A DNA stretch of 59,906 bases from assembly GCA_017454465.1 (NCBI GenBank), contig JAFTCY010000127.1:1-59906 (forward strand), in the 5' to 3' direction. The notes under the pieces are model-generated. The model was given only the letters and a program-made list of their open reading frames with translations. It had not been told where the DNA came from and searched no databases. Positions 2,244 to 48,589 of the stretch are shown one piece after another. Origin of the DNA: Clostridia bacterium (GTDB lineage: Bacteria; Bacillota; Clostridia; Oscillospirales; CAG-272). Made by a program: the position numbers and the translations under genes. The number at the start of each line of letters is the position of its first letter. Positions within the stretch are counted from its first letter, which is position 1.

Positions 2244-5075
2244 TCATTTCCTGAGTTTTTCCTTCAGGTATAACCCTGTGTATGAGCCGGGGATCATGGA
2301 AACCTCCTCCGGCGTGCCCTTTGCTATCACAGTGCCGCCCGCATCTCCTCCCTCGGGACCCAGATCAATTATGTAGTCCGCACATTTTATGACATCAAGG
2401 TTGTGTTCGATGACAACGCATGTGTTCCCTGCGTCAACAAGGGATTGAAGTATGCCTATGAGTTTGTCCACATCAGCGGAATGAAGACCGGTCGTCGGTT
2501 CGTCAAGCACATAGATCGTCCGGCCCGTCGCCCGCTTTGAAAGTTCCGTTGCCAGCTTTACTCTTTGAGCTTCGCCTCCGGAAAGAGTAGTTGAAGACTG
2601 ACCTATCTTTATGTACCCCAGACCGACCTGGCAAAGCAGCCTCAGCCTGTTTGCAATCTTTGGCACATCTTTGAAGAAATCAGCTCCTTCGTCCGCGGTC
2701 ATTTCCAGAACGTCAGATATGCTTTTTCCTTTGTACTTGACCTCAAGAGTTTCACGGTTATACCGTTTTCCGTGGCAGACGTCGCAGGTCACATACACAT
2801 CCGGGAGGAAGTGCATCTCGATCTTTTTGACACCGTCACCCTGGCATGATTCGCAGCGTCCCCCTTTTACATTGAAAGAGAAACGCCCGCTGTTATATCC
2901 CCGGATCTTGGCTCCCTGGGTGGAAGCAAACAGATTCCGGATGTCAGTGAACAGTCCCGTATAGGTGGCGGGATTAGAGCGCGGGGTCCTTCCAATAGGG
3001 GACTGGTCAATGGCGATGATCTTGTCGAGGTTCTCGGCTCCTTCGATCCTGTCATGGTCTCCGGCGATCGTAAACGCACGGTTCAGGGAGTGGGCAAGGG
3101 ACTGATAAAGGATCGAATTGACCAGAGAAGACTTGCCGGAACCGGAAACGCCGGTGACACATACAAAGCAGCCAAGTGGGAATTCTACGTCAATATTTTT
3201 CAGATTGTGTTCCCTTGCGCCGACTATTTTCAACATTTCTCCGGTCCCGCTCCTTCTGCGCTCCGGGACTTTTATTGATCTTCTGCCGGAGAGGTAGTCC
3301 CCGGTTATTGAATTTGTATTTGCTGCAACTTCAGCAGGGGAACCGCATGCAACGACTTCTCCGCCGTGTATCCCCGCTCCCGGGCCTATATCGATCACAT
3401 AGTCAGATGACATGATGGTTTCTTCATCGTGTTCGACGACAATTACCGAGTTGCCCAGATCTCTGAGGTTTTTCAGAGTTTTTATCAGCTTACTGTTGTC
3501 TCTCTGGTGGAGGCCTATGGAAGGCTCGTCAAGAATATACAGGACACCCGCGAGGGAAGATCCTATCTGGGTAGCCAGCCGTATTCTCTGAGCCTCTCCT
3601 CCGGAAAGAGTCGCTGATTTCCTTGAAAGCGTCAGGTAGTTCAGGCCTACGGACTCCAGAAATCCCAATCTGCTCTTCAGCTCTTTCACTATTTCCCTGG
3701 CGATCACTTCACCTTCAGCCGAAAAATGCAGGGATTTAGTGAATTCAAGGGCATCAGAAACTGATAAAGAACAGAATTCGTGTATGTTTTTCCCTCCTAT
3801 GGTAACGGAAAGGATCTGTGGGTTTAGGCGGGCGCCGTGGCAACTGGGGCAGTCGCGCTCTGACATGAACTGGGTGTAATATTCGTATTCCCATGCTCCG
3901 GGCTGCGCTCTCTTTTCTATCATTTTAAGCAATCCCTCAAAAACGACGGACTGGGTCTGGGTCCTGTTGCCGAAACTGCGGGTGATGTTGCATGGGTCCG
4001 GGTCTCCGTTCAGCAGGATATCAAAAGCAGCGGGGGGATAATCACAGAGGGGCGTATCGAGGCTGACACCATGTCTTTCCAAAGCGCATCTGAACAGCGG
4101 ACCGTTCCAGCTGTCTTCTGTAAGAGATTTGAATCCGTTTACCGCTATGGCCCCTTCCGCCAGGGACAGTGACAGGTCAGGGATTATTTTTCTCGGGTCT
4201 GAAGTCATAAGCACTCCCAGTCCGAGACATTCAGGACAGGCGCCGAAGGGATTGTTGAAAGAGAACGCTCTTGGTTCCAGATCGCCGAAACTGATTCCGT
4301 GTTCGGGACAGGCGTAATTTGTCGAATACTCGTTTTCGACAGGTTCGGAGCCGTCATTCGGCACGGTGGCGCATATGACGAATCCGTCGGACTCTCTGAG
4401 TGCGACTTCTACCGAATCGGTGATTCTGCCTTCAGCTCCCTGCTTTATGATAAGACGGTCTATGACAAGTTCAACAGTGTGCCGAAGATTTTTGTCAAGA
4501 TCAATATCCTCAGTCAGATCATAAATGATTCCGTCGATACGGGCTCTGACATAGCCGTTTCTTTTTGCGTCGGACAGAACTTTTTCCTGCCGGCCTTTTT
4601 TTGCTCTGACCACGGGTGAGAGGATCATGAATCTTGTTCCCTCAGGCATTGACATAATGCTGTCTACGATTATATCCGTGGAAGACTGCTTGATCTCCCT
4701 GCCGCAAACAGGACAGTGAGGCGTTCCGAGACGGGAATATAAGAGCCTTAGATAATCATATATTTCGGTTACTGTTCCAACTGTCGAACGGGGGTTTTTT
4801 GAAGTTGTTTTCTGGTCGATCGAGATGGCGGGGGAAAGCCCCGTAACCGAGTCAAGATCCGGCTTGTCGAGCTGACCAATGAACATTCTTGCATACGAGG
4901 AAAGTGATTCTACAAATCTTCTGTGACCCTCGGCATACAGTGTATCAAAAGCCAGTGAAGACTTTCCGGAGCCGGAGAGGCCGGTCAGTACCACCAGCCT
5001 GTCACGGGGAATGTCCACGGAGATATTTTTCAGGTTGTGCATGCGCACACCGCGAAGAGAAATCTTGTCCGGCAT
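2244..5075 (-). CDS. uvrA: Excinuclease ABC subunit A
   Basis: [50 protein letters not shown], a second ABC module ([14 protein letters not shown]), LSGGE signatures, CxxC zinc modules, and canonical length (943 aa). The start is set at ATG 5075, with a GGGAG RBS 7 nt upstream. Confidence 0.95.
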
Positions 5076-5076
5076 A

Positions 5077-7296
5077 TTATTCTCCCAATTGAGTAATGAA
5101 GTCATGAACTCTGAGATCAAGCTCGTCTGTTCTTAGTTTGTCTTCCGCATATGCTTTCCTGAGCAGTTCTGAGGGTATGAATTCATCGAACTTTTCAAAA
5201 ACCGGAGACTCGGAAGGGCCGATCAAAGATGAACGGTCTATCCCTTCCCGGATTATGTTGTTCGAAAGATCCCTGAGCATATTCACGCCGCTTCCGCCTT
5301 CAAGCTTGAAAGTCATGTAATAGCATCCTTCGTATTCCATTCCGGTCAGTTTATACTTTCCGGCGTATTTGGAAAGATACCTCCTCAAAGTTCGGAAACT
5401 GCGGGTGCCCAGCCAGGGGAAAAGAGCCCAGGTATAACCGCCTAGATGGAGGATAGGTTTCTGGCATACTCCGGTATTACGGGCTACAGCCCGGGCAGTA
5501 CGCAGTCTCTCCAGAGCCTGCTTGTGGAGATAGGGGTATTCAGTATCCTCACAGAGGACCTGTTTCATTCGTTCAAGGATCCTGGTGTGGACCTCGCCGT
5601 AGTCGCCGGGCCAACTGACTTCCATTTTTCCCTCGACAGGCATGACATATATAAGATGACGGGGTATATCCAGTTCTTCCACCTGCCAGACTCTGCCGGC
5701 AAGGGCAAATCTGTCGCCAACAGGCGGAGGGGTGGTGATGACACCTATCTCCCCGGACTCGCACCTGACAGTGAAGTCCTCAGTATCCTTGAATACAGCA
5801 TAAAACTTGAAGGAGTTTATGAGTTTTTCGCCCCTCAGCCCGATAATAAGCTCTCCGTTCTCTGTCAGTTCCAGCCAGTCATGGTTGATCATTGAGACCA
5901 GCAGCAGCCTGTAATCCTCTCTGTCTACATGGGCAAACGGAGGGAGGCTGAGAATCATCTCTGCCAGGGCAGCGGGAGAAAGAGCCCCGCTGGACGCTAT
6001 TATCGAAAGGGTCTGGTGAAACATGAGCGAGAAGGGACACTTCTTTGTGACCGGAGGTTCTATGAACCGGTCTTCTATGTAAAGCTGCACGATGGCAATG
6101 GCTTTGAGCAGCTCCCACGGTATAAGTTCCGGAAGAGGCGCGTTGGGCAGGGGATTTTCTTCCCGGAAGACCATGAGCATTTCCGGCGGATCTCCTCTTC
6201 TTCCGCTTCTGCCCAGCCTTTGCAGAAAAGAAGACACAGAATTAGGGGAACCCTGCTGTATTATCCGCTCAAGTTTCCCGATGTCTATTCCAAGTTCCAT
6301 GGTCACGGTGGCACAGGTTACGGCGGGGATCGAATCATCCTTCATCTTCATTTCCGCTTCTTCGCGGATACTTGCTGAAAGAAATCCGTGATGAATGAGA
6401 AAGATGTCAGGCTCGCCTCTGTATCTTGCTATTTCCCTTAATGTTGCGCAGACATATTCTGTTTCTTCTCTGGAGTTTGAGAAGACTATTGACTTCTTTC
6501 CAACCGCGGAATCGTAAATGTATTCATATCCCATGTCCATATGCATGGTTTCCGAGGGGGTCAGTTCGGAAGACGGCAGAGATGCCACATCCTTGCTCAT
6601 TATGTAAAAATGCTCCATGCCCAGACGCCATCGGAGTTCGGTTTTCGGAACTTCAGGAACAGTGGTCGATCTTCCGCTTCCGGATTCGAGCCATCCTGCC
6701 GCTTTTCCGACATCGCCCACGGTGGCGGACAGACCTATCCTTCTCGGGTATACCCCGGTCTTCCTCTGCAGTCTGGAGAGCAGGCAGAGGATCTGGTTTC
6801 CGCGGTCTGTTCCGGTGAGAGTATGGATCTCATCGATGACGATGTACCTCAGATCTCCGAACAGCCTTATCAGATCAGATGACCGGTTCATCAGCATTGA
6901 TTCAAGGGACTCCGGCGTTATCTGGAGGATCCCCGCCGGGTGTTCAAGAGCCTTGGCCTTGTGGGACTGGGCTACATCGCCGTGCCAGTGAAAGACCGGG
7001 ATACCTGCATCTTCGCAGATCTGGGTGATCCTCAGGAACTGGTCATTGATCAGTGATTTGAGCGGCGCGATGTACAGGGCTCCGAAAGAAGACGGCATGT
7101 CTTCATAAAACTCGGAAAGGATCGGGAAAAACGCGGCTTCGGTCTTTCCGGAAGCAGTCCTTGAGTGAAGGAGGAGATTGTTGTTTCCGTAAAAGATCTC
7201 ATGAGCCGCTGCGACCTGGACGGGCCCGAGGGCCTCCCATCCGTGGGAATAGATGTATTCTCTGATAAATGGCGAGTAGGATTCAAATACTGACAT
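5077..7296 (-). CDS. sngC: Lhr-like DEAD/DEAH-box SF2 helicase, the SngC-like component of a Shango-type system
   Basis: Helicase motifs TASGKTEAA (I), DEIH (II), SAT (III) and QRLGRSGRR (VI), plus a ~300-aa C-terminal region like the Lhr 'DEAD/H-associated' extension. It is the third gene of the TerB/ATPase/helicase operon. Confidence 0.75.
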
Positions 7297-7318
7297 GGCG
7301 TATCCTTTCGAGAAAGAT

Positions 7319-8710
7319 CTAGAACGTTATGTCTTCAAGAGTCACTTTTCCGTTTTGTTGGCTGTTTTGACTGACGGACGCAGGAATGGAACTCTGGGGT
7401 GTCCTGCTGTCATATGCAGCTGTGCTGATCTGCGGGTTGTCGGCTGCTGTTCGTTTGATGTCTGCATAAGACAGATCCCGGTTTGTATAAAGAAGATCCA
7501 ACAGGGTCACATAGTCTCTTATAATCTCTCTTGGGGTGATCATCGTTCCTGCTCCTTCTCGCTTCAGGGAAGTTGCAAGAAAGTCATTCATTTCTTCTTC
7601 CGTGAGCCCGGGCTCCCATGCATGGTATTCGCCGTGAAGAGAAGTAAGTCTTATGATCAATGCCAGCATTTCAGCATCGGAAAGACGCTTCAGTCTCAAA
7701 ACAGGCTGCATCAGGGAGCGGTATTCACCTCCGCCGAATCGTCCGTCTGCCAGTCTGCTCCTCAATGCTTCATAGCTGTACAAGCCACGTCTTGTATCCT
7801 CAAGGAACTGGGGCGTTCCGCCGAACACGATCATTAAGCCCGGCGCCCTCCCCTGCATCGTGTCGTTGAACATAGACAGGATCTTTTCATAGTTGTTTTC
7901 ACGGGAGATTCTGTTCGGTATCTTGTACAGATTGACACATTCGTCGATGTAAAGGCACAGGCCGCTGTAACCGGCCAGCCTGAAGAAAGAAGTGAAAAGC
8001 TTCAGGTAATCATACCAGTTGTCATCGGTTATGATGGTTACCGACCTGATCCCGAGGCCCTGGCGGGCTTCGGTCCTCGTGGAGTACTCTCCCCGGAGCC
8101 ATTTCAGACAGGCGGACTGTCCGGAATCATCGCCGTCGCTCCAGGAAGTGTAATATTTTTTCATGACTGCGGCAAAGTCAAAGCCTCCGATGTCAGACTC
8201 AAGCGATCTGAGGCTGGCTGATATTCTTTTCGTGAATTCGTCTGTATATTCCTGCCCGTTTCTGTCAAGCCCTTCGTCTTCAAGCTCGGATGCTATGCTT
8301 GTGAACCACTTGCCTATGATGACAGGCAGAGCACCGCCGTCGGGAGAGGTCTTGCATGCGAGATTTTTCATCAGCTCACGGAAAGTTGCGAGTCCGTACA
8401 TTCCGCTGCCCGCAAGCTTCCGTTCAGGAGAAAGGTCACAATCCGCAGTAACGAACCCCTTGTCAAGAGCATACCCTCTCGCAAGCTGAATCAGAAAGCT
8501 TTTCCCGGAACCGTAACGACCGATAATGAATTTCGTGCTTCCTTCACCTTCGGCGACTCTGTCCAGTGCATCGGCAAGTGCCTGGATCTCTTCTTTCCTT
8601 CCGATGGCTATATACGGAGCTCCCATTCTGGGAACGACTCCCCCTGAAAGAGACGAAAGCAAAGTGCCAAGGATTCTTTTGGGTATCCTGTTTAATACGT
8701 TTGAAGCCAC
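7319..8710 (-). CDS. sngB: DUF2791-type P-loop ATPase, the SngB-like component of a Shango-type system
   Basis: Walker A GRYGSGKSF and Walker B LCLYIDEC. Size (463 aa) and position match the DUF2791 ATPases paired with TerB-N/TerB-C proteins. GTG start with a GAAAGGAA RBS, overlapping the upstream gene by 19 nt. Confidence 0.7.
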   Translation of the reverse strand: MASNVLNRIPKRILGTLLSSLSGGVVPRMGAPYIAIGRKEEIQALADALDRVAEGEGSTKFIIGRYGSGKSFLIQLARGYALDKGFVTADCDLSPERKLAGSGMYGLATFRELMKNLACKTSPDGGALPVIIGKWFTSIASELEDEGLDRNGQEYTDEFTKRISASLRSLESDIGGFDFAAVMKKYYTSWSDGDDSGQSACLKWLRGEYSTRTEARQGLGIRSVTIITDDNWYDYLKLFTSFFRLAGYSGLCLYIDECVNLYKIPNRISRENNYEKILSMFNDTMQGRAPGLMIVFGGTPQFLEDTRRGLYSYEALRSRLADGRFGGGEYRSLMQPVLRLKRLSDAEMLALIIRLTSLHGEYHAWEPGLTEEEMNDFLATSLKREGAGTMITPREIIRDYVTLLDLLYTNRDLSYADIKRTAADNPQISTAAYDSRTPQSSIPASVSQNSQQNGKVTLEDITF

Positions 8711-10548
8711 TCTTCGATTTCCTTTCTGTAATCTTCAACGAGATTGTAGGAGATTCCGGCCGGATCCGGCTCTATGATTACATCTCCGAGAATGTCAAGG
8801 AAAAGGCTGTTCACGGTGTCAGCCATGTTTCCCTCATTAAGTCCGTTTTCGCGGCAGTACAGAGAAAACTCGCTGTCGAGAGCCGCGCGTATCGCGCCTT
8901 TTGTGGTTATATCTGCGTCACTGTTTTCCGTGCATACGGCTTTCCCGGTTTCGAAAATGAAGTCTCCGGAAGAAACGGCGCCCTCGGGATTCTCGTCAGC
9001 CGCGCCGCATTCCGGGTCATTGGACGTGAGATCCTCGCCGGTCAGCCGCTCGGTATTCGTCCATGATGACTGTTCAAGTTCTGCCGCAAGTTCATAATCG
9101 TAACCGCTGGACTCGGGCTCATAATACTCCATGTATTCAGGCTCCTTCTGCTTCGGATCTCCTGTAAGCGGGTAGATTGTGTTCAGGGTTTCATACAGAC
9201 AGGCTTGTATCCCGGCCTGCAACGGCTCTGTCTTGAGTTTTGACTTTATCCCGAGCACAGATCTGAGGCGGTTTTCGCATTCTTTTACAGCAGACGTTAT
9301 TACCTGGCGTGATTCAGCTCTTCTTGTGAAGGAGAGAAAACTCAGGTCGATCCGCATCCTGATACCGGGAGCGACCATGGCTCCGCTGTAGCTCTCTCTT
9401 GTTATGGAGTAGAACCGGTCCAGGCTGAGCGGAGCCGCGGAATCCGCGATGGCTTTGACTATGAATGCACCGACAAGATACGGCAGTTCCGAGTCATAGA
9501 AGGCTTTGTTGGGCATATAACATTTTGACTGTGTATAGTCATAATCAGACAGGGTTTCCGCAATGGCCCTGCCGAGAAGTGAAATGTTCTCTTTTTCTCC
9601 GTTCTTGGCCAGAAGGAGCAGTGGATGAATATAAAACTCTTTGAACTGTGACTTGGGGACTATACTGGGGATAAAAGGCAGAAGGGATTTCGGCAGGGGG
9701 AGCTCATGGATAAGGCAGTAATCAGCCATCCATTCACCCAGAAATCCGTCAAGTCTCGGGTAAGTGCCCCGGTAAGCAAGCCACAGCGAGGAGAGTATGC
9801 GGACACCCTGCTGTGGAGGGATCAGATCGGGAAGGTTGATCACTTCGTATATGTAGAGTATGATATACGGAAGGTCTGCCGCAGGGAAAAGCCCTTTTCT
9901 GACTTCCTCGCGCCATGCTCTGTAAAACTCTATCTGCTGGCTGTTCATATGTGAGAACTGGGGGATATATGACTGGAAAGGAACAGGGGACAGAGAAGCG
10001 AACTGTTTTACCGGGGAAGAACGGTGGCTCTGGGCTACATCCCGTGAAAAATGACTGTAAGCACTGTCCACGGGCCTGGACCTGATCGTGGCTGAGGAAA
10101 GAAGGCCCTCGTGATAGAAGCTGTATTTTCTGACTACCGAATCTTCCTTTTCAGGAATAGCATCATGATCAACCGAAACAAGCCTTCTCGGTGCCTCTGG
10201 TATTTTCAGAGAGCCCTTTTCCGGGATAGGTTCCGGCCGGGCATTATCGGTTTTTGATTCGGCTATACTTATGTCATAGGTGCCGGGGGGTGTTTCAAAA
10301 TCCGGCTTTCGGTATTTTTTCTCCTTTGGAGGGCCGAGATACCAGAAACCGTCCTCGTTCGCGTTTCCGCGGTCAGCGCCCGCTTCTTCGTCGGCAGATC
10401 CCGCCGGAACAGTGGCTGAGGTCGGAAAAAGGCCTTTGATCTCGGCAACAGTTTTCCGAGCTTCTTCAATGTTGCCCTCGTCGAGTTTTGCCTGCAGTTC
10501 CGATAATAGATCAGATAAAGCACGCATTACGTCACTGCTGTCTGGCAT
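8692..10548 (-). CDS. sngA: TerB-N / TerB-C domain protein, the SngA-like component of a Shango-type system
   Basis: The central block SYIPQFSHMNSQQIEFYRAWREEVRKG...LPYIILYIYEVINL is a TerB-N-like signature. The C-terminal NSLFLDILGDVIIEPD...YNLVEDY is TerB-C-like. GGGAGG RBS 9 nt before ATG 10548. Confidence 0.7.
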   Translation of the reverse strand: MPDSSDVMRALSDLLSELQAKLDEGNIEEARKTVAEIKGLFPTSATVPAGSADEEAGADRGNANEDGFWYLGPPKEKKYRKPDFETPPGTYDISIAESKTDNARPEPIPEKGSLKIPEAPRRLVSVDHDAIPEKEDSVVRKYSFYHEGLLSSATIRSRPVDSAYSHFSRDVAQSHRSSPVKQFASLSPVPFQSYIPQFSHMNSQQIEFYRAWREEVRKGLFPAADLPYIILYIYEVINLPDLIPPQQGVRILSSLWLAYRGTYPRLDGFLGEWMADYCLIHELPLPKSLLPFIPSIVPKSQFKEFYIHPLLLLAKNGEKENISLLGRAIAETLSDYDYTQSKCYMPNKAFYDSELPYLVGAFIVKAIADSAAPLSLDRFYSITRESYSGAMVAPGIRMRIDLSFLSFTRRAESRQVITSAVKECENRLRSVLGIKSKLKTEPLQAGIQACLYETLNTIYPLTGDPKQKEPEYMEYYEPESSGYDYELAAELEQSSWTNTERLTGEDLTSNDPECGAADENPEGAVSSGDFIFETGKAVCTENSDADITTKGAIRAALDSEFSLYCRENGLNEGNMADTVNSLFLDILGDVIIEPDPAGISYNLVEDYRKEIEEWLQTY

Positions 10549-11216: not shown

Positions 11217-11292
11217 ACTGTGTGAAATAGTGAATCCCTGCCAGTGATGATGTGCCTGAATATGCAGGATGTCCAAATTTTCACTGACCATC

Positions 11293-11321
11293 TTGACATG
11301 AAAAATCTTTCATGATAGAAT
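11293..11321 (+). promoter_or_regulatory. Sigma-A promoter of the T-box leader
   Basis: TTGACA (11293-11298), a 17-nt spacer ending in TGa, then TAGAAT (11316-11321). Confidence 0.7.
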
Positions 11322-11323
11322 CT

Positions 11324-11587
11324 GCGCATACTGAAGAACGCAGTGACGGAGAGCAATACCGAGAAGATGTACAGAGAGTTGCCGGGCGGTGAAAGGCAAT
11401 ATCGATGCGGTTAACACTCACTCCGGAGCGGCTGCCCGAAATGCCGTTGGCAGAGTAGACGCAGACGGGACCGACCGTTATATCGGAAAGGCATGATAGT
11501 GCCTGAAAAAAGGATACGAATGTATCGAAGAAGAGTGGTACCACGAGGTTTACACCGCGTCTCTTTGTAAGAGAGACACGGTTTTTT
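11324..11587 (+). promoter_or_regulatory. T-box riboswitch (tRNA-sensing transcription attenuator), probable Leu specifier CUC
   Basis: Elements read in order:
- K-turn: CGC-AGU-GA-CGGAG paired with CUCCG-GA-GCG.
- Specifier loop 3' side: UAACA-CUC-A (CUC at 11417-11419).
- AG bulge: AGAGAG (11372-11377).
- Distal loop: GGGCGGUGAAA.
- F-box: CCGUUA (11475-11480).
- T-box sequence: AGAGUGGUACCACG, with UGGU at 11536-11539 implying discriminator A73.
- Terminator at 11555-11587: an 11-bp stem plus U6, mutually exclusive with the antiterminator. Confidence 0.85.
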
Positions 11588-11611
11588 GTTTTTTCTGGAG
11601 GATAGGTATAT

Positions 11612-14161
11612 ATGAAAATTTCATTTTCCACACTGGGATGTCCGGATTTTTCATGGATAGACATTTGTTCCATGGCCAAGGACTTTGGGTTTCAGGGAAT
11701 TGAGATCAGAGGCCTTTCAGGAGAAGATATATTCAAACTGCACAAATCTCCGTTCAAGCCTGAGAACATAGAAGCGACCCGAGAACAGCTGAAACGGCAG
11801 AAACTGGAGATCAGTTGCTTTTCAACAGGGTGCTCGCTGGGATACCGTGACAGACGGGACGACAATATGAGGGAGATCAGAAAGTACATCGACCTTGCAA
11901 GATATTTCAAGGTTCCGTACGTAAGAGTGCTGGGAGAGCCGTCCGCAGAGCCCGAGATGCAGGTAGATGACGACTTTGTCGTGGAACAGATGAAGGATCT
12001 CGCTCCCATTGCTGAGGAGGCTGGGGTGATAATCCTGCTGGAGACCAACGGCGTGTACTCGGATACCGCCCGCCTTTCGGATGTTCTCGCGCGGGTGGGA
12101 AGCGACAATGTGGCAGCCCTGTGGGATTTCAACCATCCCTTCCGCTTCAACGGTGAAATGCCCCAGACTACGATCAATAATCTCGGGGCATACATAAAAC
12201 ATATACATATCAAGGACTCTGTGGTTGAAGACGGGAAACTTATATACAAGCTGGTCGGGGAGGGAGACCTGCCTCCTATGGCTGACTATATGAAGGCGCT
12301 TTTATCACTCAACTATGAGGGATATGTTTCTCTCGAGTGGATGAAGCAGTACGCTCCGGATCTTTCCGACCCGGGTGTGGTGTTTCCTCATTATGCCCAT
12401 TTTATGTCAATGTACCTTGGCGTGCCGGAAAGCAACGCCAGGCTGATTCCAGACAACCGGGGCGAGGGCTACTATGTATGGCCGAAAGAGCAGCTGATCG
12501 ATCTGACCATGCCTCAGGTACTCGACCGCATGGTGGAGGAATTCCCGGACCGCTATGCTTTTCGGTATACGACATGTGACTATACAAGGACATGGAGCGA
12601 ATTCAGAGACGATGTGGATCTGTTTGCGCGCTCGCTGATCTCGCTCGGCGTAAAGCAGGGCGACCATGTAGCCATTTGGGCGACCAATGTTCCGCAGTGG
12701 TATATCACTTTCTGGGCCACTGTCAAGATCGGCGCCGTGCTCGTTACAGTAAATACAGCATACAAAGTCCATGAAGCCGATTATCTGCTCAGGCAGTCCG
12801 ACACCCATACCCTTGTTATGACCGACGGATACAAGGATTCTGACTACGTAAAGATCATGAACGAGATAGTCCCGGAACTGAAGGACAATGAAGATGAGAA
12901 CGGTGTTGTTAAACCTTTGCACTGCAGACGCCTTCCGTTTTTGAGAAATGTGATCACGGTCGAGTCGAAGCATAAGGGGTGCCTGACCTGGTCAGACGCG
13001 ATCGAGGCTGCTCAGAGGACACCCATGGACGCGGTATACAGAAGAGCAGCGATGATAAACAAGCATGACGTTTGCAATATGCAGTATACCAGCGGAACGA
13101 CCGGATTCCCGAAGGGAGTCATGCTTTCCCACTATAACGTCGTCAACAATGGAAAAGCGATTGGAGACTGCATGGATCTGTCTACTGCTGACAGAATGAT
13201 GATACAGGTCCCGATGTTCCATTGTTTCGGAATGGTCCTTGCCATGACAGCTTCCATGACGCACGGGGTCACCATGTCTCCGATTCCCGCTTTTTCGCCG
13301 AGACTGGGTCTTGAGTGTATCGACCGTGAGAAAATAACGGCTTTTCACGGGGTACCCACCATGTTCATAGCCATGCTCGGCCATGAAAACTTCAGCAAGA
13401 CCGACTTTTCACATATGCGTACCGGAATCATGGCGGGCTCTCCGTGTCCGATCAAGGTCATGGAGGAAGTGATTCAAAAGATGCATATGCCGGAGATCTG
13501 TATAACCTACGGCCAGACGGAAGCGTCTCCCGCGACCACCATGTCAAAGACGACGGACTCGATCGAGACGAGGGTGAATACAGTCGGATCGGCGATATTC
13601 GGCGTGGAATGCAAGATAGTGAATCCCGAAACAGGAGAGGACTGCCCTGACAATGTAGACGGCGAATTCGTTGCCCGCGGGTACAACATAATGAAGGGAT
13701 ACTACAAAATGCCTGAGGCGACATCTGTTGCCATCGACAAAGAGGGGTGGCTTCATACGGGGGATCTGGCGAGACGCCTTCCGGACGGGAACTACAAGAT
13801 CACCGGGAGGATAAAGGACATGATCATCCGCGGAGGAGAAAACATTTATCCAAAGGAGATAGAGGACTTTATCTATACGTATCCGAAGGTCCAGGACGTG
13901 CAGGTAATAGGCGTTCCCGACAAAGCATACGGCGAGGAAATAATGGCGTGCGTTATTAAGAAACCCGGGGAGGATTGTACGGCGGAAGAGATCAGGGATT
14001 ATGTCAGGGAACACATGGCAAAGCATAAAACACCGAAATATGTCGTGTTTGTCGACAGTTTCCCGATGAATGCGGCGGGAAAGATACTGAAATACAAGAT
14101 GAGGGACGATGCGAAAAAGCTTCCCGAATTCCGGGAAGCGGCGGGTATCGTAACTGCGTGA
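11612..14161 (+). CDS. Fusion protein: N-terminal xylose-isomerase-like TIM-barrel (sugar phosphate isomerase/epimerase family) domain plus C-terminal AMP-dependent acyl-CoA synthetase
   Basis: Residues ~1-270 (MKISFSTLGCPDFSW...GFQGIEIRG...ILLETNG...HIHIKD...SLEW) fit the AP-endonuclease-2/xylose isomerase-like barrel. Residues ~300-849 carry adenylate-forming motifs YTSGTTGFPKG, GYNIMKGYY, TGDLARR and IIRGGENIYPKEIE. GGAGG RBS. Confidence 0.8.
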   Translation: MKISFSTLGCPDFSWIDICSMAKDFGFQGIEIRGLSGEDIFKLHKSPFKPENIEATREQLKRQKLEISCFSTGCSLGYRDRRDDNMREIRKYIDLARYFKVPYVRVLGEPSAEPEMQVDDDFVVEQMKDLAPIAEEAGVIILLETNGVYSDTARLSDVLARVGSDNVAALWDFNHPFRFNGEMPQTTINNLGAYIKHIHIKDSVVEDGKLIYKLVGEGDLPPMADYMKALLSLNYEGYVSLEWMKQYAPDLSDPGVVFPHYAHFMSMYLGVPESNARLIPDNRGEGYYVWPKEQLIDLTMPQVLDRMVEEFPDRYAFRYTTCDYTRTWSEFRDDVDLFARSLISLGVKQGDHVAIWATNVPQWYITFWATVKIGAVLVTVNTAYKVHEADYLLRQSDTHTLVMTDGYKDSDYVKIMNEIVPELKDNEDENGVVKPLHCRRLPFLRNVITVESKHKGCLTWSDAIEAAQRTPMDAVYRRAAMINKHDVCNMQYTSGTTGFPKGVMLSHYNVVNNGKAIGDCMDLSTADRMMIQVPMFHCFGMVLAMTASMTHGVTMSPIPAFSPRLGLECIDREKITAFHGVPTMFIAMLGHENFSKTDFSHMRTGIMAGSPCPIKVMEEVIQKMHMPEICITYGQTEASPATTMSKTTDSIETRVNTVGSAIFGVECKIVNPETGEDCPDNVDGEFVARGYNIMKGYYKMPEATSVAIDKEGWLHTGDLARRLPDGNYKITGRIKDMIIRGGENIYPKEIEDFIYTYPKVQDVQVIGVPDKAYGEEIMACVIKKPGEDCTAEEIRDYVREHMAKHKTPKYVVFVDSFPMNAAGKILKYKMRDDAKKLPEFREAAGIVTA

Positions 14162-14217: not shown

Positions 14218-15114
14218 TCAAATTGACGACATGGCGGATCCAAGTTCGCGTACAGTGTTCTGGAACCATTCTATGGGATTGCCGGTAATGATCCAGATCG
14301 CGACGAACGCGGCGATCAGTATTATGGCGCATACCAGGACGACGATCCAAAGCGCGATACAGTAATTCTGGACCGTTTTTCTCTTTGTTCCGCCGCACGC
14401 CCATACTATGCTGAGGACAAAACCGACGACGGGGATGGCGAGAAGGAGCCAGCGGCCGATCCAGCCCCACGGCGACACGGGCTGATAAGGTGTGCGCCAT
14501 ACATCATCTTCGGTAAGAGGCTCGCGGTTTGCGAGGCGTTCTCTGCGTTCTTCCTTTGCTTTTGCTTTTGCGATGGCTTCCTGGCGGGCCTGTTCCTTCT
14601 TTGCCTCTTTTTCAGCCGCAGCGCGTTCCTTTTCAGCTTTCTGACGTTCCTTTTCAGCTTTCTGACGTTCCTTTTCGGCTTTCTGACGTTCCTTTTCGGC
14701 TCTTTGAAGCTCTTCTTCGGCTCTCTGGCGCTCTTTTTCCAGATTGGGGTCAACATATGGCACCGCGGGGGTCTCTGCAACGGGCTGTGTTGCCGGTGGC
14801 TGCTGTTGCGCTTCGTTCGGAACATATGCCGGAGCCGGTGCCGCGGGAATCTCTTCGGCAACGAAAGACCTGATCTCATCCGCTGCTTCTTCAGACTTTT
14901 CCTCCGCTGCTTCAATCACCTTTTCGGCTCCTTCAGAAATTGTTTCCGCAGCATTTTGAGCAACAGGCGCGACTTCTCCTGCGGCCGTTTCGACCGCCGC
15001 TTCAGCAGCAGCCGCCGCGGCTGCCGCATCTTTCAGATTTGCTCCGCATTCCGGGCAGTGCTTTGCGTCTTCAGGAAGCACCGATCCGCAAAGAGGACAT
15101 CTTTTTTCTTCCAT
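14218..15114 (-). CDS. Zinc-ribbon / coiled-coil / C-terminal membrane-anchored protein
   Basis: N-terminal CPLCGSVLPEDAKHCPECG zinc ribbon, an A/E-rich linker, four (AEKERQK) heptad repeats, and a C-terminal hydrophobic region with about 3 TM segments. AGGAG RBS. Confidence 0.6.
   Translation of the reverse strand: MEEKRCPLCGSVLPEDAKHCPECGANLKDAAAAAAAAEAAVETAAGEVAPVAQNAAETISEGAEKVIEAAEEKSEEAADEIRSFVAEEIPAAPAPAYVPNEAQQQPPATQPVAETPAVPYVDPNLEKERQRAEEELQRAEKERQKAEKERQKAEKERQKAEKERAAAEKEAKKEQARQEAIAKAKAKEERRERLANREPLTEDDVWRTPYQPVSPWGWIGRWLLLAIPVVGFVLSIVWACGGTKRKTVQNYCIALWIVVLVCAIILIAAFVAIWIITGNPIEWFQNTVRELGSAMSSI
14625..14708 (-). repeat. In-frame 21-bp tandem repeat (3 near-perfect copies plus 1 degenerate)
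   Basis: The + strand unit GTTCCTTTTC(A/G)GCTTTCTGAC occurs at 14625, 14646 and 14667, with a degenerate copy at 14688. It encodes the KAEKERQ heptads. Confidence 0.9.
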
Positions 15115-15250: not shown

Positions 15251-15685
15251 TTAGATCTGGGTTCTCGCTATTTCGTCTGTGAGCAGGGAATAGCCTGATT
15301 CCCTAAGTATCTTTTCGGTCGTTTCGTTGTCTGAAACCCGGAGCACGACGTTTGCGGTGTTGGGAATGGAGGACACGAAAGCGTAAAGATACTCAACGTT
15401 GATGCCTGCCTGAGAGACGATCCCGAGAAGCTTTGAAAGGCCTCCCTGGGAATCAGAAATCTGAACGCCCACAACATCAGTCACGCTTACTATTTTTCCT
15501 TCGCTTGAAAGCGAATATGCCGCTGTTCTCGGGTCATCGACTATCATCCTGATGACACCGTATTCGTTTGTGTCGGCTACGCTGAAGGCTCTTATGTTAA
15601 TTCCTGCTTCGGAAAGGATAGCGGTCGTTTCGTAAAGGGAACCCTGCTTGTTTTCTGCAAATACGGACAACTGTCTGACGGACAT
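15251..15685 (-). CDS. ACT domain-containing protein
   Basis: The MSVRQLSVFAENKQGSLYETTAILSEAGINIRAFSVADT pattern, two ACT repeats, and the usual position next to paaK-type ligases. Confidence 0.8.
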   Translation of the reverse strand: MSVRQLSVFAENKQGSLYETTAILSEAGINIRAFSVADTNEYGVIRMIVDDPRTAAYSLSSEGKIVSVTDVVGVQISDSQGGLSKLLGIVSQAGINVEYLYAFVSSIPNTANVVLRVSDNETTEKILRESGYSLLTDEIARTQI

Positions 15686-15727
15686 TGTACAATCCTCCTC
15701 AACCTCTTATTCTCTTCATACTATATA

Positions 15728-17032
15728 TTAACCGTATAACTTCCTTTTGTCAATCACTCTGACAGCTTTTCCTTCACTTCTTATGATGGATTTTGGTTCC
15801 ACTATCGATACTTTCGCAAATATTCCGAGCATGGATTTCATTGCGTCGGTGATCTGCCTTTCCCGGATCTCAATGGTATTGATCGTATCGCTGAACAGCT
15901 CGGGAGTCATCTCAACGTTGATTTCGATGGAATCAGTGGTGCCGACGCGGTCAACTATGATCTGATAATTGGAGGTAAGACCCTGGTTCAGAAGAACGGT
16001 TTCTATCTGGGACGGGAATACGTTGACGCCTTTGATGATAAGCATGTCGTCGCTTCTTCCCATGGGTTTCGACATCTTGACGAACGTTCTTCCGCAGGAG
16101 CATTTTTCCCTTTTCAGAACAGCAATGTCTTTTGTTCTGTACCGGAGAAGCGGAAAAGCTCTTTTAGTGATGCTCGTGAACACGAGCTCACCCTTTTCGC
16201 CCTCAGGCAGCACTTTTCCTGTGTCGGGATCGATGGTCTCTACGATGAAATGGTCCTCATTGATGTGCATGCCTGACTGCTCGCAGCATTCAAATGCGAC
16301 ACCCGGGCCGGACAGTTCAGTCAATCCGTAAATATCGTATGCTTTTATGCCGAGCCTGCTTTCGATGTCACGGCGCATTTCTTCTGTCCATGCTTCAGCG
16401 CCGAAGATCCCCGCTTTCAGCTTTATATCGTTTCTGATTCCTTTTTCATATATGGACTCTGCGAGGTAAGCCGCATACGACGGGGTGCAGCACAGAATGG
16501 TCGATTCCAGGTCGACCATGAACTGAAGCTGGCGTTCCGTGTTTCCGGATGACATGGGGAGCGTAAGGCAGCCCACCTTGTGCGATCCTCCGTGCAGGCC
16601 GTTGCCTCCTGTAAACAGGCCGTACCCGTAGCATACCTGGACCACATCTTCCTTTGTTCCGCCTGCTGCCACGATGGCGCGGGCGCAGCAGTCCTCCCAC
16701 AGGTCTATGTCTTCTTTTGTGTAGAACGCCACGACCCTTTTTCCCGTCGTTCCGCTGGTGGACTGAATCCTGACACAGTCCGACAGAGGCGCTGACATAA
16801 GGCCGTACGGATATGCCTCCCTGAGGTCATCCTTTGTGAGATACGGCAGTTTCCACAGGTCATCAACAGAGTGAATGTCCTCGGGTATCACTCCCCTGTC
16901 GATCATTTTCTTTCTGTAGTATGTGTTGTTCTTCCAGACATGCGCAAGGGTCTTCAGAAAACGTTCGTTCTGCCATTCCCGTATCTGCTCAGCGGAAGCT
17001 GTTTCAATCTCTTTCTGGTAGTAACGTTCCAT
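15728..17032 (-). CDS. paaK: Phenylacetate--CoA ligase family protein
   Basis: MERYYQKEIETASAEQIREWQNERF..., IQSTSGTTGKRVV and YGLTELSGPGVAFEC: PaaK-type adenylate-forming enzyme. AAGGAG RBS. Confidence 0.85.
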   Translation of the reverse strand: MERYYQKEIETASAEQIREWQNERFLKTLAHVWKNNTYYRKKMIDRGVIPEDIHSVDDLWKLPYLTKDDLREAYPYGLMSAPLSDCVRIQSTSGTTGKRVVAFYTKEDIDLWEDCCARAIVAAGGTKEDVVQVCYGYGLFTGGNGLHGGSHKVGCLTLPMSSGNTERQLQFMVDLESTILCCTPSYAAYLAESIYEKGIRNDIKLKAGIFGAEAWTEEMRRDIESRLGIKAYDIYGLTELSGPGVAFECCEQSGMHINEDHFIVETIDPDTGKVLPEGEKGELVFTSITKRAFPLLRYRTKDIAVLKREKCSCGRTFVKMSKPMGRSDDMLIIKGVNVFPSQIETVLLNQGLTSNYQIIVDRVGTTDSIEINVEMTPELFSDTINTIEIRERQITDAMKSMLGIFAKVSIVEPKSIIRSEGKAVRVIDKRKLYG

Positions 17033-31470: not shown

Positions 31471-32256
31471 TCAGGAAAGAAGTATCCTGTCTGTGTTCAT
31501 TTCCTTGCCGGAGTTCTTATGGAACAGGACAAGCAGATCTGAAACGGTAAGCTTCTTCCTTTCCTCACCGCCGGTCTCATAGATGATCTTCCCGGCGTCC
31601 ATCATTATTGTCCGGTTTCCTAGATCGAGGGCGGTCTGCATATTGTGGGTCACCATAAGACAGGTGATGTTGTTTTCACGTACGATAGTTTCGGTTATTT
31701 CGAGAACTTTTTCTGCAGTGGCGGGATCCAGTGCCGCTGTGTGCTCGTCAAGGAGCAAAAGCTTCGGTGTGGTGAATGTGGCCATGAGCAGAGTCACTGC
31801 CTGACGCTGTCCGCCTGACAGAAGTCCCACGGGCATATTCATTCTGTCCTCCAGACCCATACCGAGCATTGAGAGCCTTTCCCTGAAGTCCTGAACGTCC
31901 TTCTTTGTTACTCTGGACATCCACCCTCCTCTTCCGGAAGCAAGGGAGAGATTTTCAGTTATGCTCATTGCGGGAGCAGTGCCGAGCTGAGGATCCTGGA
32001 AAAGCCTTCCTATCACTTTTGCTCTTTTATGATCAGGTTGCAGTGTGATATCTTCGCCGTCGAGTATGATCGAACCTTCGTCTGTGAAAAAGCTTCCTGC
32101 TATTGCACCGAACAGGGTGCTTTTCCCGGCTCCGTTTGCGCCGATAATGGAAACGAAATCACCTTTATCCAGATGAAGGGATACATGGGAAAGAGCAGTT
32201 TTTGCGTTTACTGTACCAGGGTTGAAGGTCTTTGAAATGTTGTTGATCTTAAGCAT
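31471..32256 (-). CDS. ABC transporter ATP-binding protein (COG1101-type, partner of the COG2984 SBP)
   Basis: Walker A GANGAGKST, signature LSGGQRQ, Walker B LLLLDEHTAALD. The start is set at ATG 32256 after GGAGGTGGGAG, overlapping the permease stop by 8 nt. Confidence 0.85.
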   Translation of the reverse strand: MLKINNISKTFNPGTVNAKTALSHVSLHLDKGDFVSIIGANGAGKSTLFGAIAGSFFTDEGSIILDGEDITLQPDHKRAKVIGRLFQDPQLGTAPAMSITENLSLASGRGGWMSRVTKKDVQDFRERLSMLGMGLEDRMNMPVGLLSGGQRQAVTLLMATFTTPKLLLLDEHTAALDPATAEKVLEITETIVRENNITCLMVTHNMQTALDLGNRTIMMDAGKIIYETGGEERKKLTVSDLLVLFHKNSGKEMNTDRILLS

Positions 32257-33220
32257 TGCTCCCACCTCCGTCATTGGCCGGGACTTCCGGCGTGCCGTTC
32301 CTGCGGGCTTTGAAACGCCTTACCAGGTCAGGCCGCTTGGAGTTGAGATACGGAGTGGCAATGGCAAGGATCACTATTACAGCAGATACGAGTTTGAGCA
32401 TGTAAGCAGGCATATTGAATCTGAGAGCTATGGCGTATACCAGCTGGAAGATGATCGCTCCCAGTACCGCGCCGATGGCACGGAACGGTATCTTTCTTCT
32501 TGCGCTTATAAATATCCCGCCTATAAGCAGTGACGCGAGAGCTATGGTCACGCGCCCGGAACCTATATCAGAACTGACTGATTTCTGGCATTGCGCCAGA
32601 AGACAGCCTGACAGTGCGGTGAGGGACCCCGATATGCACAGTCCGACAGTAGTGGTAAAGGCCGGATTTATTGAGCTCGATCTTACCATTGCCGGATTGT
32701 TGCCGGTCGCACGGATCGCCAATCCCAGCCTGGTCCTGAGGAACAGGGAGAGAAAGACGATGACGAGAGTTACGGCTACAAGAGCACCCAGGGTTTTGTA
32801 AAGACCCGCAAAAGGTGTTTTGTCGAGCAGCATCTTGAATGGCGTGAAGTATGTGTCCGTGTTATTCATATTAAGAGTCGGACGCCCGCCCATTATGAGC
32901 ATTATTATCGAGTAAAGGCCTGTATTGACTATGATTCCGGACAGCAGGCTGTTGATGCCCATTTTTGTCTGGAGAAAGGCGGTCACAAATCCTGACAGAA
33001 CACCGGCCAGCATGGCTGCGAGTATGGACAGTAACGGATTGCCCGAGGAAATGGCGACCATGGCGCCGACGGCTGCGCCAAGAGCGAAGCAGCCGTCGGT
33101 AGAAAGGTCACATATATTAAGCATTGAGTAGCTGAGGAACAGGGCAAGAACAGTGATCGAACTTATAAGGCCCAGTTCTGCAGCAGTCTGGAAGATTCCG
33201 ACAAATGGCGGAAGAGGCAT
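32249..33220 (-). CDS. ABC transporter permease (COG4120-type)
   Basis: Polytopic hydrophobic protein in operon position between the SBP and the ATPase. GGGAGA RBS. Confidence 0.8.
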   Translation of the reverse strand: MPLPPFVGIFQTAAELGLISSITVLALFLSYSMLNICDLSTDGCFALGAAVGAMVAISSGNPLLSILAAMLAGVLSGFVTAFLQTKMGINSLLSGIIVNTGLYSIIMLIMGGRPTLNMNNTDTYFTPFKMLLDKTPFAGLYKTLGALVAVTLVIVFLSLFLRTRLGLAIRATGNNPAMVRSSSINPAFTTTVGLCISGSLTALSGCLLAQCQKSVSSDIGSGRVTIALASLLIGGIFISARRKIPFRAIGAVLGAIIFQLVYAIALRFNMPAYMLKLVSAVIVILAIATPYLNSKRPDLVRRFKARRNGTPEVPANDGGGSNA

Positions 33221-33251: not shown

Positions 33252-34286
33252 TTAGTTATTGAGATCGCCGAAGCTTTCAGCTGTCGTTATAGGCTGTACC
33301 TTGGTGCAGAAAGGAGCGAAGATTGCAGCGACTTCGTCGAACTTGAGCCCGAGAGCTTCACAGATTTCCGTATTGACTGTTGCGGTGCCGTTGTCAAACG
33401 TTTTGACTGCGAGCGAGTCGGTGGCCTTGCCGTCAAGCAGGATCTCCGCGATCATATTGGCAGTTTCAACACCGAGGTTGGCATAATCGACACCGTAACC
33501 GAGGAACGCACCGTTCAGAGCGAAGCTGTCCGCGCCGGTGTAGTGCGGGATCTTTGCGTTGGCAAATGTTTCATAGATCGCTAGTTCTGACTTCATGACA
33601 GTATTGTCGGTGGGGGTGAATACCGCTTCAACACCGTCTGCTACGAGAGCCTGGGCTGCAAGCATGATCTCGTCTACGGTAGTTCCTGTCCTCTCATAAT
33701 ATTTGATGCCCTTTGAATCCAGGAATGATTTTGCCGCTGCGATAGGAGTGGCTGAACTGTCCTCACCGACATTGTAGAGAAGGCCGACTGATTTGATCCC
33801 GGGGTTCAGTGCGAGGATGAGGTTCATAACAGCGTTAGTGTCAAGGTAATCGGAGGTGCCGGTCAGATTGTGGCCGGGTTTTTCAAGGCTGTCAACGAGT
33901 CCTGCTGACAGGGGGTCCGAAACCGCAGCGAACACCACGGGGATCTTGCTGTCTTCAGTAGCTGACTGCATAGCCATTGCTACGGGGGTTGCGACGCCTA
34001 CCATGAGATCCACACCGCTGACCGTGAAGTCCGCGATTATCTGATTGAGGACGGCTGCATCCATGTTGCAGTTGTCGACTTTAACATTGATCTTTACGTT
34101 CCTGGCGGTCTCGATCTCCTTTAGCCTGTTCTGGATGTTTTCTATGATCTGGTTCAGAGACGCGTCATCAACGAAGTTGCAGATACCTACTGAGTACGAT
34201 TTGGTTTCACTGGGAGTGTTCGTGTTGCAAGCAACGATGCAGAGTGCCATTACAGCGACAAGTACGAGTGCGATGATCCTTTTCAT
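33252..34286 (-). CDS. ABC transporter substrate-binding lipoprotein (ABC_sub_bind / COG2984 family), probable tryptophan-related uptake
   Basis: Lipoprotein signal MKRIIALVLVAVMALCIVAC. The fold pattern fits the BMP/ABC_sub_bind family. It is preceded by a Trp T-box. The start is set at ATG 34286 (AGAGAGG RBS). Confidence 0.75.
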   Translation of the reverse strand: MKRIIALVLVAVMALCIVACNTNTPSETKSYSVGICNFVDDASLNQIIENIQNRLKEIETARNVKINVKVDNCNMDAAVLNQIIADFTVSGVDLMVGVATPVAMAMQSATEDSKIPVVFAAVSDPLSAGLVDSLEKPGHNLTGTSDYLDTNAVMNLILALNPGIKSVGLLYNVGEDSSATPIAAAKSFLDSKGIKYYERTGTTVDEIMLAAQALVADGVEAVFTPTDNTVMKSELAIYETFANAKIPHYTGADSFALNGAFLGYGVDYANLGVETANMIAEILLDGKATDSLAVKTFDNGTATVNTEICEALGLKFDEVAAIFAPFCTKVQPITTAESFGDLNN

Positions 34287-34334
34287 TTTCAATACCTCTC
34301 TTTGATAAAATAGATTAGGTTGGCGGATCGAGGA

Positions 34335-34603
34335 CAAAACAAAAATCCTGTCCTCGCATAAATGCTGGGACAGGAATCAATCCTGCGGTGCCACCCGGCT
34401 TGACGTCTGAAACGTCCGCTCTGTGCGTACTAACATACGCCGGTCCTTGGTCACGGGGAACCACACCCGTCTCACATACTCGGCAGAAGCCTTTCTGATC
34501 GCCCTCAGAAGTCCATTCGCATCCGTTGATCACACTGCCCTCACACCGCCGGCAGCTCGCTTCGGTGATATTCCGGAGGTTACTTACTCTTCCTCACTGG
34601 TTT
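34335..34603 (-). promoter_or_regulatory. T-box riboswitch with Trp (UGG) specifier
   Basis: Read on the minus strand:
- K-turn: AGUGAGGAAG...CUUCUGAGG.
- S-turn: AGAGUA.
- AG bulge: AGCGAG.
- Distal loop: GGCGGUGUGAG.
- Specifier: GAA-UGG-A (UGG is + strand 34515-34513).
- T-box sequence: GGGUGGCACCGC (UGGC implies discriminator G73, as in tRNA-Trp).
- Terminator: UCCUGUCC...GGACAGGA plus U5 (34335-34375). Confidence 0.9.
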
Positions 34604-34609
34604 GCATGG

Positions 34610-48576: not shown

Positions 48577-48589
48577 GGAGGAGAGCGCC

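Follow-up and report, generated by a model that had tools for sequence, protein, structure and literature searches.

Why should a T-box leader with a leucine specifier stand in front of a gene for an acyl-CoA ligase? The question is raised by a locus of a Clostridia bacterium (Oscillospirales, CAG-272) on contig JAFTCY010000127.1 (assembly GCA_017454465.1). The whole stretch of DNA analysed, 59,906 nucleotides (nt) long, is called here the window. In the window a T-box leader precedes a gene for a protein of 849 amino acids (aa), and a preliminary description, made from the letters of the sequence, had read the leader as a leucine-type T-box and the gene as an acyl-CoA synthetase that, by hypothesis, activates a carboxylic acid such as isovalerate, a possible precursor of leucine, when leucine is scarce. 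By covariance modelling and comparison with orthologous loci we find that the leucine reading of the leader holds, that it is kept across Clostridia, and that the controlled gene encodes a fusion of two domains. Activation of isovalerate is, in our view, the most economical account of this arrangement, at a probability somewhat below one half.

The leader and its leucine specifier

The full T-box model of Rfam (RF00230, model positions 1-219) aligned with 11334-11567 on the forward strand at 86.3 bits (E 1.8e-19 in a search of a 451-nt region and 2.4e-17 across the whole window). This score lies below the Rfam 15 gathering score of 93 bits, an operational and not a structural criterion, and a default Rfam scan of the window consequently reports no T-box; the match was obtained in a rescan at an E-value threshold. 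Since the unambiguous tryptophan T-box of the same window (77.2 bits) also falls under the cut-off, the cut-off is conservative for this lineage. With both genuine T-boxes of the window scoring below 93 bits at E values of about 1e-17, default annotation evidently under-calls T-boxes in this lineage.

The elements expected of a T-box are in place. Stem I has the kink-turn (K-turn), the specifier loop with a codon and a purine right above the K-turn helix, the AG bulge and the distal loop, and the conserved T-box sequence with its UGGN bulge lies in an antiterminator, for which an intrinsic terminator downstream is the competing structure. The competition is visible in the shared strands: the 5′ strand of the terminator, CCGCGUCUCUU, overlaps the 3′ strand of the antiterminator, and the 3′ helix strand of the T-box, CGCGUCUCU, is common to the terminator hairpin (11555-11581). 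The UGGU bulge is complementary to a tRNA 3′ end ACCA (discriminator A73). The preliminary description had listed the T-box elements and placed the end of the terminator 25 nt before the start codon; the full-length RF00230 match and our reading of promoter and terminator agree with it, the 25 nt being the distance from the end of the first U-tract to the ATG (11612). The segment 11334-11567 is a complete transcription-attenuating T-box with its own promoter, terminator and ribosome-binding site.

On the 3′ side of the specifier loop, the Rfam alignment reads ACA-CUC-A, followed by the helix strand CUCC and the K-turn strand GGAGC. Our own covariance model of orthologous leaders (R1, described below), which scores Stem I of the window at 71.3 bits (11329-11432), places CUC in the same slot. 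The earlier proposal that CUC at 11417-11419 is the specifier, to be checked with the RF00230 covariance model, is thus confirmed, and two independent alignments put a leucine codon in the specifier position.

For comparison, 80 orthologous loci (here given L numbers) were collected from species-representative genomes with the family-specific N-terminal domain of the protein as the query, and the 79 sampled loci with readable upstream sequence were surveyed for T-boxes. The strict pattern AGUGGUACC occurs within 400 nt upstream in 50 loci. A seed alignment of 49 Stem I regions, made with MAFFT blind to structure, was used to build R1, and a search with this model found a Stem I directly upstream of the fusion gene in 53 of the 79 loci and in the window (five outside the seed). 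Among the 49 aligned leaders, compensatory changes were seen in all 13 modelled pairs of Stem I, which belong to the distal helix and the helices of the K-turn. Overall, 97.2% of the Stem I cells are paired, as compared with 79.8% in shuffled alignments, and none of 500 shuffles reached any of the observed measures; when the partners were slid by 1-3 columns as a control, pairing fell to 33-58%. The four-pair helix under the specifier loop covaries as well (GGAG/CUCC, GGGG/CCCC, AGGG/CCCU, CGGG/CCCG and GAGG/CCUC), and the frame in which the specifier is read is thereby fixed. A minus-strand open reading frame (ORF) at 11281-11679, which crosses the leader, was treated as spurious because it is antisense to this covarying RNA structure.

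In the model-based alignment of the 54 leaders the specifier column holds CUC in 48 and CUG in 6, both of which are leucine codons, as the preliminary description had asked of the orthologs. That the R1 model does not itself force a leucine codon follows from an unrelated T-box at L070, which, aligned by the same model, has UGG in this column. The CUG leaders sit in two distinct protein clusters (L008/L010 and L044/L045/L054/L073), indicating that the synonymous switch from CUC to CUG occurred at least twice. The bulge reads xGGU in all 54 leaders (UGGU in 53, CGGU in L016), and a hairpin with a U-tract precedes the start codon in nearly all of them. The discriminator of bacterial tRNA-Leu is A73, so the fit of the UGGU bulge to this tRNA, pointed out before for the window, extends to the final U of every leader. 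The first base of the L016 bulge, CGGU, is not that of the UGGN consensus, and the otherwise intact leaders of L016, L020 and L024 carry the T-box sequence variants AGCGGUACC, AGUGGUAAC and AGUGGUCCC. A tRNA gene was looked for in the window and none was found.

A specifier shifted by one nucleotide would mean that a tRNA other than tRNA-Leu is sensed. Such −1 and +1 frames are sometimes possible according to TBDB, which also gives CUC as the specifier in 74% of leucine T-boxes (PMC7778990), and the −1 frame of the window, ACU (Thr), would likewise be compatible with an A73 tRNA. Across the orthologs, however, any of the four bases may precede CUC, so that the −1 frame reads ACU, GCU, UCU or CCU and specifies no one amino acid, and the +1 frame, with UCA, UCG, UCC and UGG, keeps no amino acid either. 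The canonical frame alone is conserved, as leucine, and the helix that sets it covaries. Shifted frames, which we consider extremely improbable, were rejected on the ground that conservation is confined to the CUC/CUG frame. Judged by these alignments, the leucine assignment of the leader is settled, short of experiment.

On a tree of protein distances, orthologs with and without a T-box are intermingled, and when the proteins are clustered at 78% identity, 14 of the 20 clusters contain members that have one. Repeated loss of an old leader is the best explanation of this pattern. In about 25 loci the T-box is genuinely absent, and their intergenic regions are short. The metagenome-assembled genomes that carry the fusion are labelled Oscillospiraceae, Christensenellaceae, Hungateiclostridiaceae and Syntrophomonas, the cultured carriers include Pelotomaculum propionicicum (L072) and Ca. 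Formimonas warabiya (L074), which both have the T-box, and the sources, according to record titles, are mostly rumen, caecum, faeces and anaerobic digesters. As far as sequence comparison can tell, the pairing of leader and gene is shown to be ancient and under selection in several families of Clostridia, with a leucine specifier throughout.

A TIM barrel fused to an acyl-CoA ligase

In calling the product of the 849-aa gene an acyl-CoA synthetase, the preliminary description was right for aa 293-834 and missed an N-terminal TIM barrel, which Pfam recognizes as AP_endonuc_2 (PF01261; aa 22-244, 110.5 bits against a cut-off of 31.1). The two domains belong together: the top 120 protein matches, all at least 73% identical, are fused without exception, as are all fetched ortholog loci with a complete ORF. 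The next gene (14218-15114) lies on the opposite strand, and the fusion gene is therefore monocistronic.

The ligase domain matches PF00501 (305 bits) and PF13193 (70 bits), with AMP-binding regions at aa 305-698 and 749-824. It contains the core motifs YTSGTTGFPKG, YGQTE, TGD, GRIKD and GKILK, that is, the A3, A5, A7 and A8 motifs and the A10 lysine of the ANL superfamily, which are conserved across 71 orthologs. The best NCBIfam match, to PRK12583 ('fatty acid CoA ligase family', NF009233; profile positions 13-550 of 558), reaches 680.7 bits where membership requires 832. Among solved structures, those of feruloyl-, malonyl- and fatty-acyl-CoA ligases come closest.

The AlphaFold (AF2) model of the barrel (predicted local distance difference test, pLDDT, 82.6; predicted template-modelling score, pTM, 0.87) is an eight-stranded beta/alpha barrel. 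Foldseek matched it with probability 1.00 to many members of the family, at template-modelling (TM) scores of 0.69-0.78 and identities of at most 21%, including the DgpB/C C-deglycosidase, the Art22 isomerase, ketose 3-epimerases, AsbF, IolI, UlaE and YcjR. By position alone, E144, D172, H199 and E242, at the ends of strands 5-8, are candidate metal ligands, and together with H175 and D202 they make up the candidate metal or catalytic residues; all six, as well as R33, R105 and K201, are invariant in 71 of 71 orthologs. The scores against NCBIfam equivalogs fall far below their cut-offs (FrlC, 46.2 against 305; Hyi, 30 against 353; IolO, 29.7 against 300), and the nearest solved structure by sequence, AsbF, is matched only at E 2e-7. 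Together with the low identity to solved members, these low scores place the barrel in no characterised subfamily. From the conservation and position of their residues, both domains look catalytically competent.

Relatives of the barrel domain are encoded in no fewer than 563 species genomes. Stand-alone TIM barrels of 265-280 aa, 32-45% identical to the N-terminus of the fusion and uncharacterised, are widespread in Clostridia; an example is the gene at 8001-8807 of L081 in Caldicellulosiruptor acetigenus. The stand-alone loci L081-L086 were checked as a possible split form of the fusion, and no ligase neighbour and no T-box was found at them. In L083-L086 the barrel gene is followed by one for a protein of 234-292 aa without a Pfam match, and the 2-kb gap after the Caldicellulosiruptor barrel gene contains an insertion sequence remnant. 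Several stand-alone barrels are labelled 'fatty-acyl-CoA synthase' by the Joint Genome Institute (JGI), a label presumably transferred from the fusion.

Table 1. Features of the T-box locus, in window coordinates
Feature	Position	Strand	Basis
Sigma-70-type promoter: TTGACA 11293-11298, 17-nt spacer, TAGAAT 11316-11321	11293-11321	+	11 of 12 consensus matches, TG before -10
T-box leader (Stem I, Stem II/IIA-B region, Stem III, antiterminator)	11334-11567	+	RF00230 match
Stem I: K-turn GC-AGUGA-CGGAG / CUCC-GGA-GC, specifier loop, AG bulge AGAGA 11374-11378, distal loop GGUGAAA	11340-11429	+	Rfam alignment
Specifier codon CUC (Leu), then conserved purine A 11420	11417-11419	+	Rfam alignment and ortholog column
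T-box sequence AGUGGUACCACG, UGGU bulge 11536-11539	11534-11545	+	Sequence reading, alignment
Intrinsic terminator: stem 11555-11581, U-tracts 11582-11587 and 11589-11594 (U6-G-U6)	11555-11594	+	Core stem 11559-11577 computed; extension by eye
Ribosome-binding site GGAGGA, 9 nt 5′ of ATG	11597-11602	+	Direct sequence reading
Fusion gene (849 aa), TIM barrel and acyl-CoA ligase, monocistronic	11612-14161	+	
N-terminal xylose-isomerase-like TIM barrel, about aa 1-280	11612-12451	+	PF01261, AF2 model, Foldseek
C-terminal ANL-superfamily acyl-CoA ligase, aa 293-834	12488-14113	+	PF00501, PF13193, PRK12583

A possible route from isovalerate to leucine

How might such a protein serve a cell that is short of leucine? 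Uncharged tRNA-Leu would pair with CUC through its anticodon GAG and with UGGU through its 3′ ACCA, stabilizing the antiterminator, and RNA polymerase would then pass the terminator (11555-11594) into the gene (11612-14161); with charged tRNA-Leu the terminator would form. We infer that the gene product is an enzyme with two functions which is induced when leucine runs short and would help the cell to obtain it. In the most economical reading, the AMP-forming ligase would convert an acid with the carbon skeleton of leucine, isovalerate being the simplest candidate, to its CoA thioester. A 2-oxoacid:ferredoxin oxidoreductase encoded elsewhere would carboxylate isovaleryl-CoA reductively to 4-methyl-2-oxopentanoate, and transamination would yield leucine. 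A high-affinity AMP-forming ligase, induced at leucine starvation, would be the committed step of this route. The TIM barrel, to which the model gives no role, could make the acid ready, have the thioester as its substrate or serve as a docking site for a partner.

We hold this reading tentatively, at a probability of roughly 0.45. It is made plausible by the position of the ligase in the neighbourhood of short/medium-chain acyl-CoA ligases (PRK12583), and rumen, gut and digester habitats are rich in branched-chain volatile fatty acids including isovalerate. The route from acid through acyl-CoA and 2-oxoacid to amino acid is established biochemically and by labelling in rumen anaerobes and methanogens.

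Several results weigh against isovalerate activation, which beyond the leucine regulation itself has no further support. Judged from its sequence, the ligase cannot be assigned a substrate, because its NCBIfam match is sub-threshold and its nearest structures are diverse ligases. Gene neighbourhood offers no partner: when ORFs were called in 81 loci and the four genes to either side of the fusion clustered all against all, the largest cluster comprised 6 loci and no neighbour was conserved, and the recurrent neighbours are unrelated (B12 radical-SAM protein, MGDG synthase, P-type ATPase, cation efflux protein, HydF, TrkH and GGDEF protein). An oxidoreductase of the pyruvate:ferredoxin oxidoreductase (PFOR) type lies near the fusion in just 2 of 80 loci (L059 and L078), and IorAB homologs in none of the 80. 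About a third of the orthologs are without a T-box, as are the distant fusions L087 and L088 (39-42% barrel identity). A general route from branched acids to amino acids would predict sister leaders with isoleucine or valine specifiers, and among the 80 best loci there are none, all 54 leaders being of the leucine type. Finally, simple activation of isovalerate would leave the TIM barrel, which is conserved and looks catalytic, without a task.

The last point leads to a less likely account, in which both domains act in a two-step conversion of some other leucine-related precursor and isovalerate is not the substrate. The barrel would perform a metal-dependent isomerisation, epimerisation or dehydration next to the carbonyl of a hydroxy- or keto-acid or of its thioester, the ligase would activate the acid, and an undescribed route would lead on to 4-methyl-2-oxopentanoate or leucine. 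The strict conservation of the fusion with both active sites intact speaks for it, and so does the superfamily of the barrel, which consists of carbonyl-adjacent isomerases, epimerases and dehydratases; the invariant R33, R105, R178 and K201 would suit an anionic substrate. A precedent exists in petrobactin synthesis, where the barrel enzyme AsbF supplies an acid to the adenylating enzyme AsbC. On the other side, the data name no candidate substrate, the stand-alone barrels come without ligase neighbour and T-box, and the Foldseek matches are generic ones within the superfamily at the low identities given above. We think it unlikely, if worth keeping in mind, that the fusion is a bifunctional enzyme whose barrel step is mechanically coupled to AMP-dependent CoA activation, which uncharged tRNA-Leu switches on as a whole, and which defines an undescribed route of leucine supply in strictly anaerobic Clostridia.

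The absent linkage to an oxidoreductase or aminotransferase would also fit a role that needs no further dedicated enzymes, such as leucine sparing. Isovalerate scavenged from outside would be turned into isovaleryl-CoA as a primer for iso-odd branched-chain fatty acids, and scarce leucine would be spared degradation for membrane lipids. The regulation is indeed leucine-specific, and rumen ruminococci build branched volatile acids into lipids. Branched primers derived from external acids have a precedent in MbcS of Staphylococcus aureus (PMC10026030, PMC11167679). However, T-boxes usually govern genes that directly raise the pool of charged tRNA (PMC2494555), fabH or similar genes of fatty-acid synthesis do not recur beside the fusion, and the barrel is left without explanation. 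We regard sparing as improbable, more so than the two-step conversion.

Charging of tRNA-Leu could, finally, be a general proxy for starvation that switches on a catabolic or envelope-related ligase with no direct part in leucine supply. About 8% of T-boxes precede unknown or seemingly unrelated genes (PMC2494555), the leader is missing from one third of the orthologs and from the distant fusions, and one of the latter, L087, lies amid acyltransferase and glycosyltransferase genes. Yet the leucine specifier is kept across many families and its amino-acid identity never changed. Its retention through at least two switches from CUC to CUG argues for selection on leucine specificity itself, and we give a proxy role very little credence. 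At the two distant fusions, P0135 and P0162, T-boxes with other specifiers were sought, and none was found in the 269 and 160 nt available upstream.

Surroundings of the gene and known systems

Isovalerate activation, the reading we prefer, was originally accompanied by the remark that the window also carries paaK, an ACT protein and iorAB. These genes exist. A PaaK-like ligase (TIGR02155, 490 bits, cut-off 646) and an adjacent ACT-pair protein are encoded at 15251-17032 on the minus strand, and an IorA/IorB-like 2-oxoacid:ferredoxin oxidoreductase pair at 46846-49174 on the plus strand. They are parts of an aryl-acid/aromatic 2-oxoacid module that is unclustered in the window; the two groups stand 30 kb apart and are not generally syntenic with the fusion, and outside close relatives of the window (L018 and L020) PaaK/ACT are not found near it. 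The position of PaaK and ACT relative to the fusion is kept in L020, and that of ACT in L018 as well. Of the two PFOR-type neighbours, that of L059 (2424-5951) is a NifJ-type enzyme encoded 50 nt upstream of the fusion on the same strand, at a locus without a T-box, and the other is at 1-3204 of L078. Directly 3′ of the distant fusion of L088, a lone catalytic domain of a 2-oxoacid dehydrogenase acyltransferase is encoded (2690-3700).

The second T-box of the window (34363-34606, minus strand; RF00230, 77.2 bits) has the specifier UGG followed by A and the bulge UGGC (discriminator G), which identifies it as a tryptophan T-box. Its layout, UGG-A-CUUC, had been cited as the same as that of the leucine leader, and this comparison stands. 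The genes behind it (33252-34337, 32249-33220 and 31471-32274, minus strand) form an ABC transporter operon with a PF04392-type substrate-binding protein, which resembles TrpXYZ of Streptococcus suis, a system for tryptophan uptake under T-box control (PMC9382623). The Trp-type (UGG) T-box of L070 lies at 10052-10160 on the minus strand, about 3.8 kb downstream of the fusion and on the opposite strand.

Elsewhere in the window, right at the beginning of the contig, RNA domains of a group II intron are found at 82-551 on the plus strand (D1-D4 at 82-348, D5/D6 at 486-551). It spans about 470 nt and is hence ORF-less or truncated, the ORF at 514-1440 starting inside the last match. Upstream of the leader, a run of defence-like genes (5077-10548, minus strand) encodes a BrxC/BrxD-type ATPase (478 bits), a TerB_N-domain protein and a DEAD/ResIII helicase, and a gene for a UvrA-like protein follows this run (2244-5120).

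For genes of unknown function, the specificity of a T-box is among the most reliable guides, and one expects of any gene behind a leucine T-box that it makes more leucine available. In the present case this signal points to an abundant two-domain enzyme across gut, rumen and digester Clostridia, and a known switch on a widespread and apparently new class of target implies leucine-related chemistry that has not been described. If the ligase activates isovalerate, the fusion would be a candidate gene for the activation step in the making of amino acids from branched volatile fatty acids, a route revealed decades ago by labelling in rumen bacteria, for which we found in the literature no assigned activating enzyme of the fused kind; it would then bear on the need of fibre-degrading anaerobes for branched-chain volatile fatty acids and on the turnover of isovalerate in the gut. 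If the barrel is catalytic in the pathway as well, the chemistry itself would be new and would go beyond simple salvage of isovalerate.

The class of target gene appears new. Surveys of T-box regulons list synthetases, biosynthetic genes and transporters, with about 8% unknown or unrelated genes, and neither an acyl-CoA ligase nor a TIM barrel appears as a target in their texts and supplements (PMC2494555, PMC3766115). The pair of leader and gene was likewise not found in full-text literature searches and the TBDB paper, a prior mention in Vitreschak et al. 2008 being possible.

How, then, does the locus compare with known systems? Among ligases, S. aureus MbcS resembles in role what we propose: it is an AMP-forming ligase for external branched short-chain acids. 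Its preferred substrates are 2-methylbutyrate and isobutyrate, whereas isovalerate is a poor one (KM > 500 uM), which shows that such ligases can discriminate branched C4/C5 isomers (PMC10026030). Unlike the fusion, MbcS is a single-domain enzyme that feeds lipid synthesis, and T-box control of it is unreported. By sequence, the best family for aa 293-834 is that of the PRK12583 or ACSF2-like short/medium-chain acyl-CoA ligases, with which it shares the ANL core motifs and from which the fusion differs in its sub-cut-off score and its additional 280-residue N-terminal barrel. That barrel has the fold of the xylose-isomerase-like enzymes (ketose 3-epimerases, hydroxypyruvate isomerase, the 3-dehydroshikimate dehydratase AsbF, DgpB/C and Art22), and the strand ends (5-8) that bear its four candidate metal ligands are those used in that superfamily, whereas its identity to every solved member is 21% or less. 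The logic of the proposed route is that of reductive carboxylation in rumen bacteria and methanogens and of the aromatic PaaK-ACT-IorAB module; in the rumen and methanogen route an activating enzyme of the fused type is not assigned, and the fusion described here is unlinked to an oxidoreductase. The leader, in turn, has the same architecture as the leucine T-boxes of leuS, the ilv-leu operon and leuA in Bacillus and Clostridia and of leuA in Geobacter (PMC2700814), i.e. a Stem I with K-turn, a CUC specifier, a UGGU bulge and competition between antiterminator and terminator. In contrast to the targets of those leaders, the fusion is neither a synthetase nor a known biosynthetic enzyme nor a transporter. 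The RNA itself is an ordinary member of the T-box class, and the unusual part is its target.

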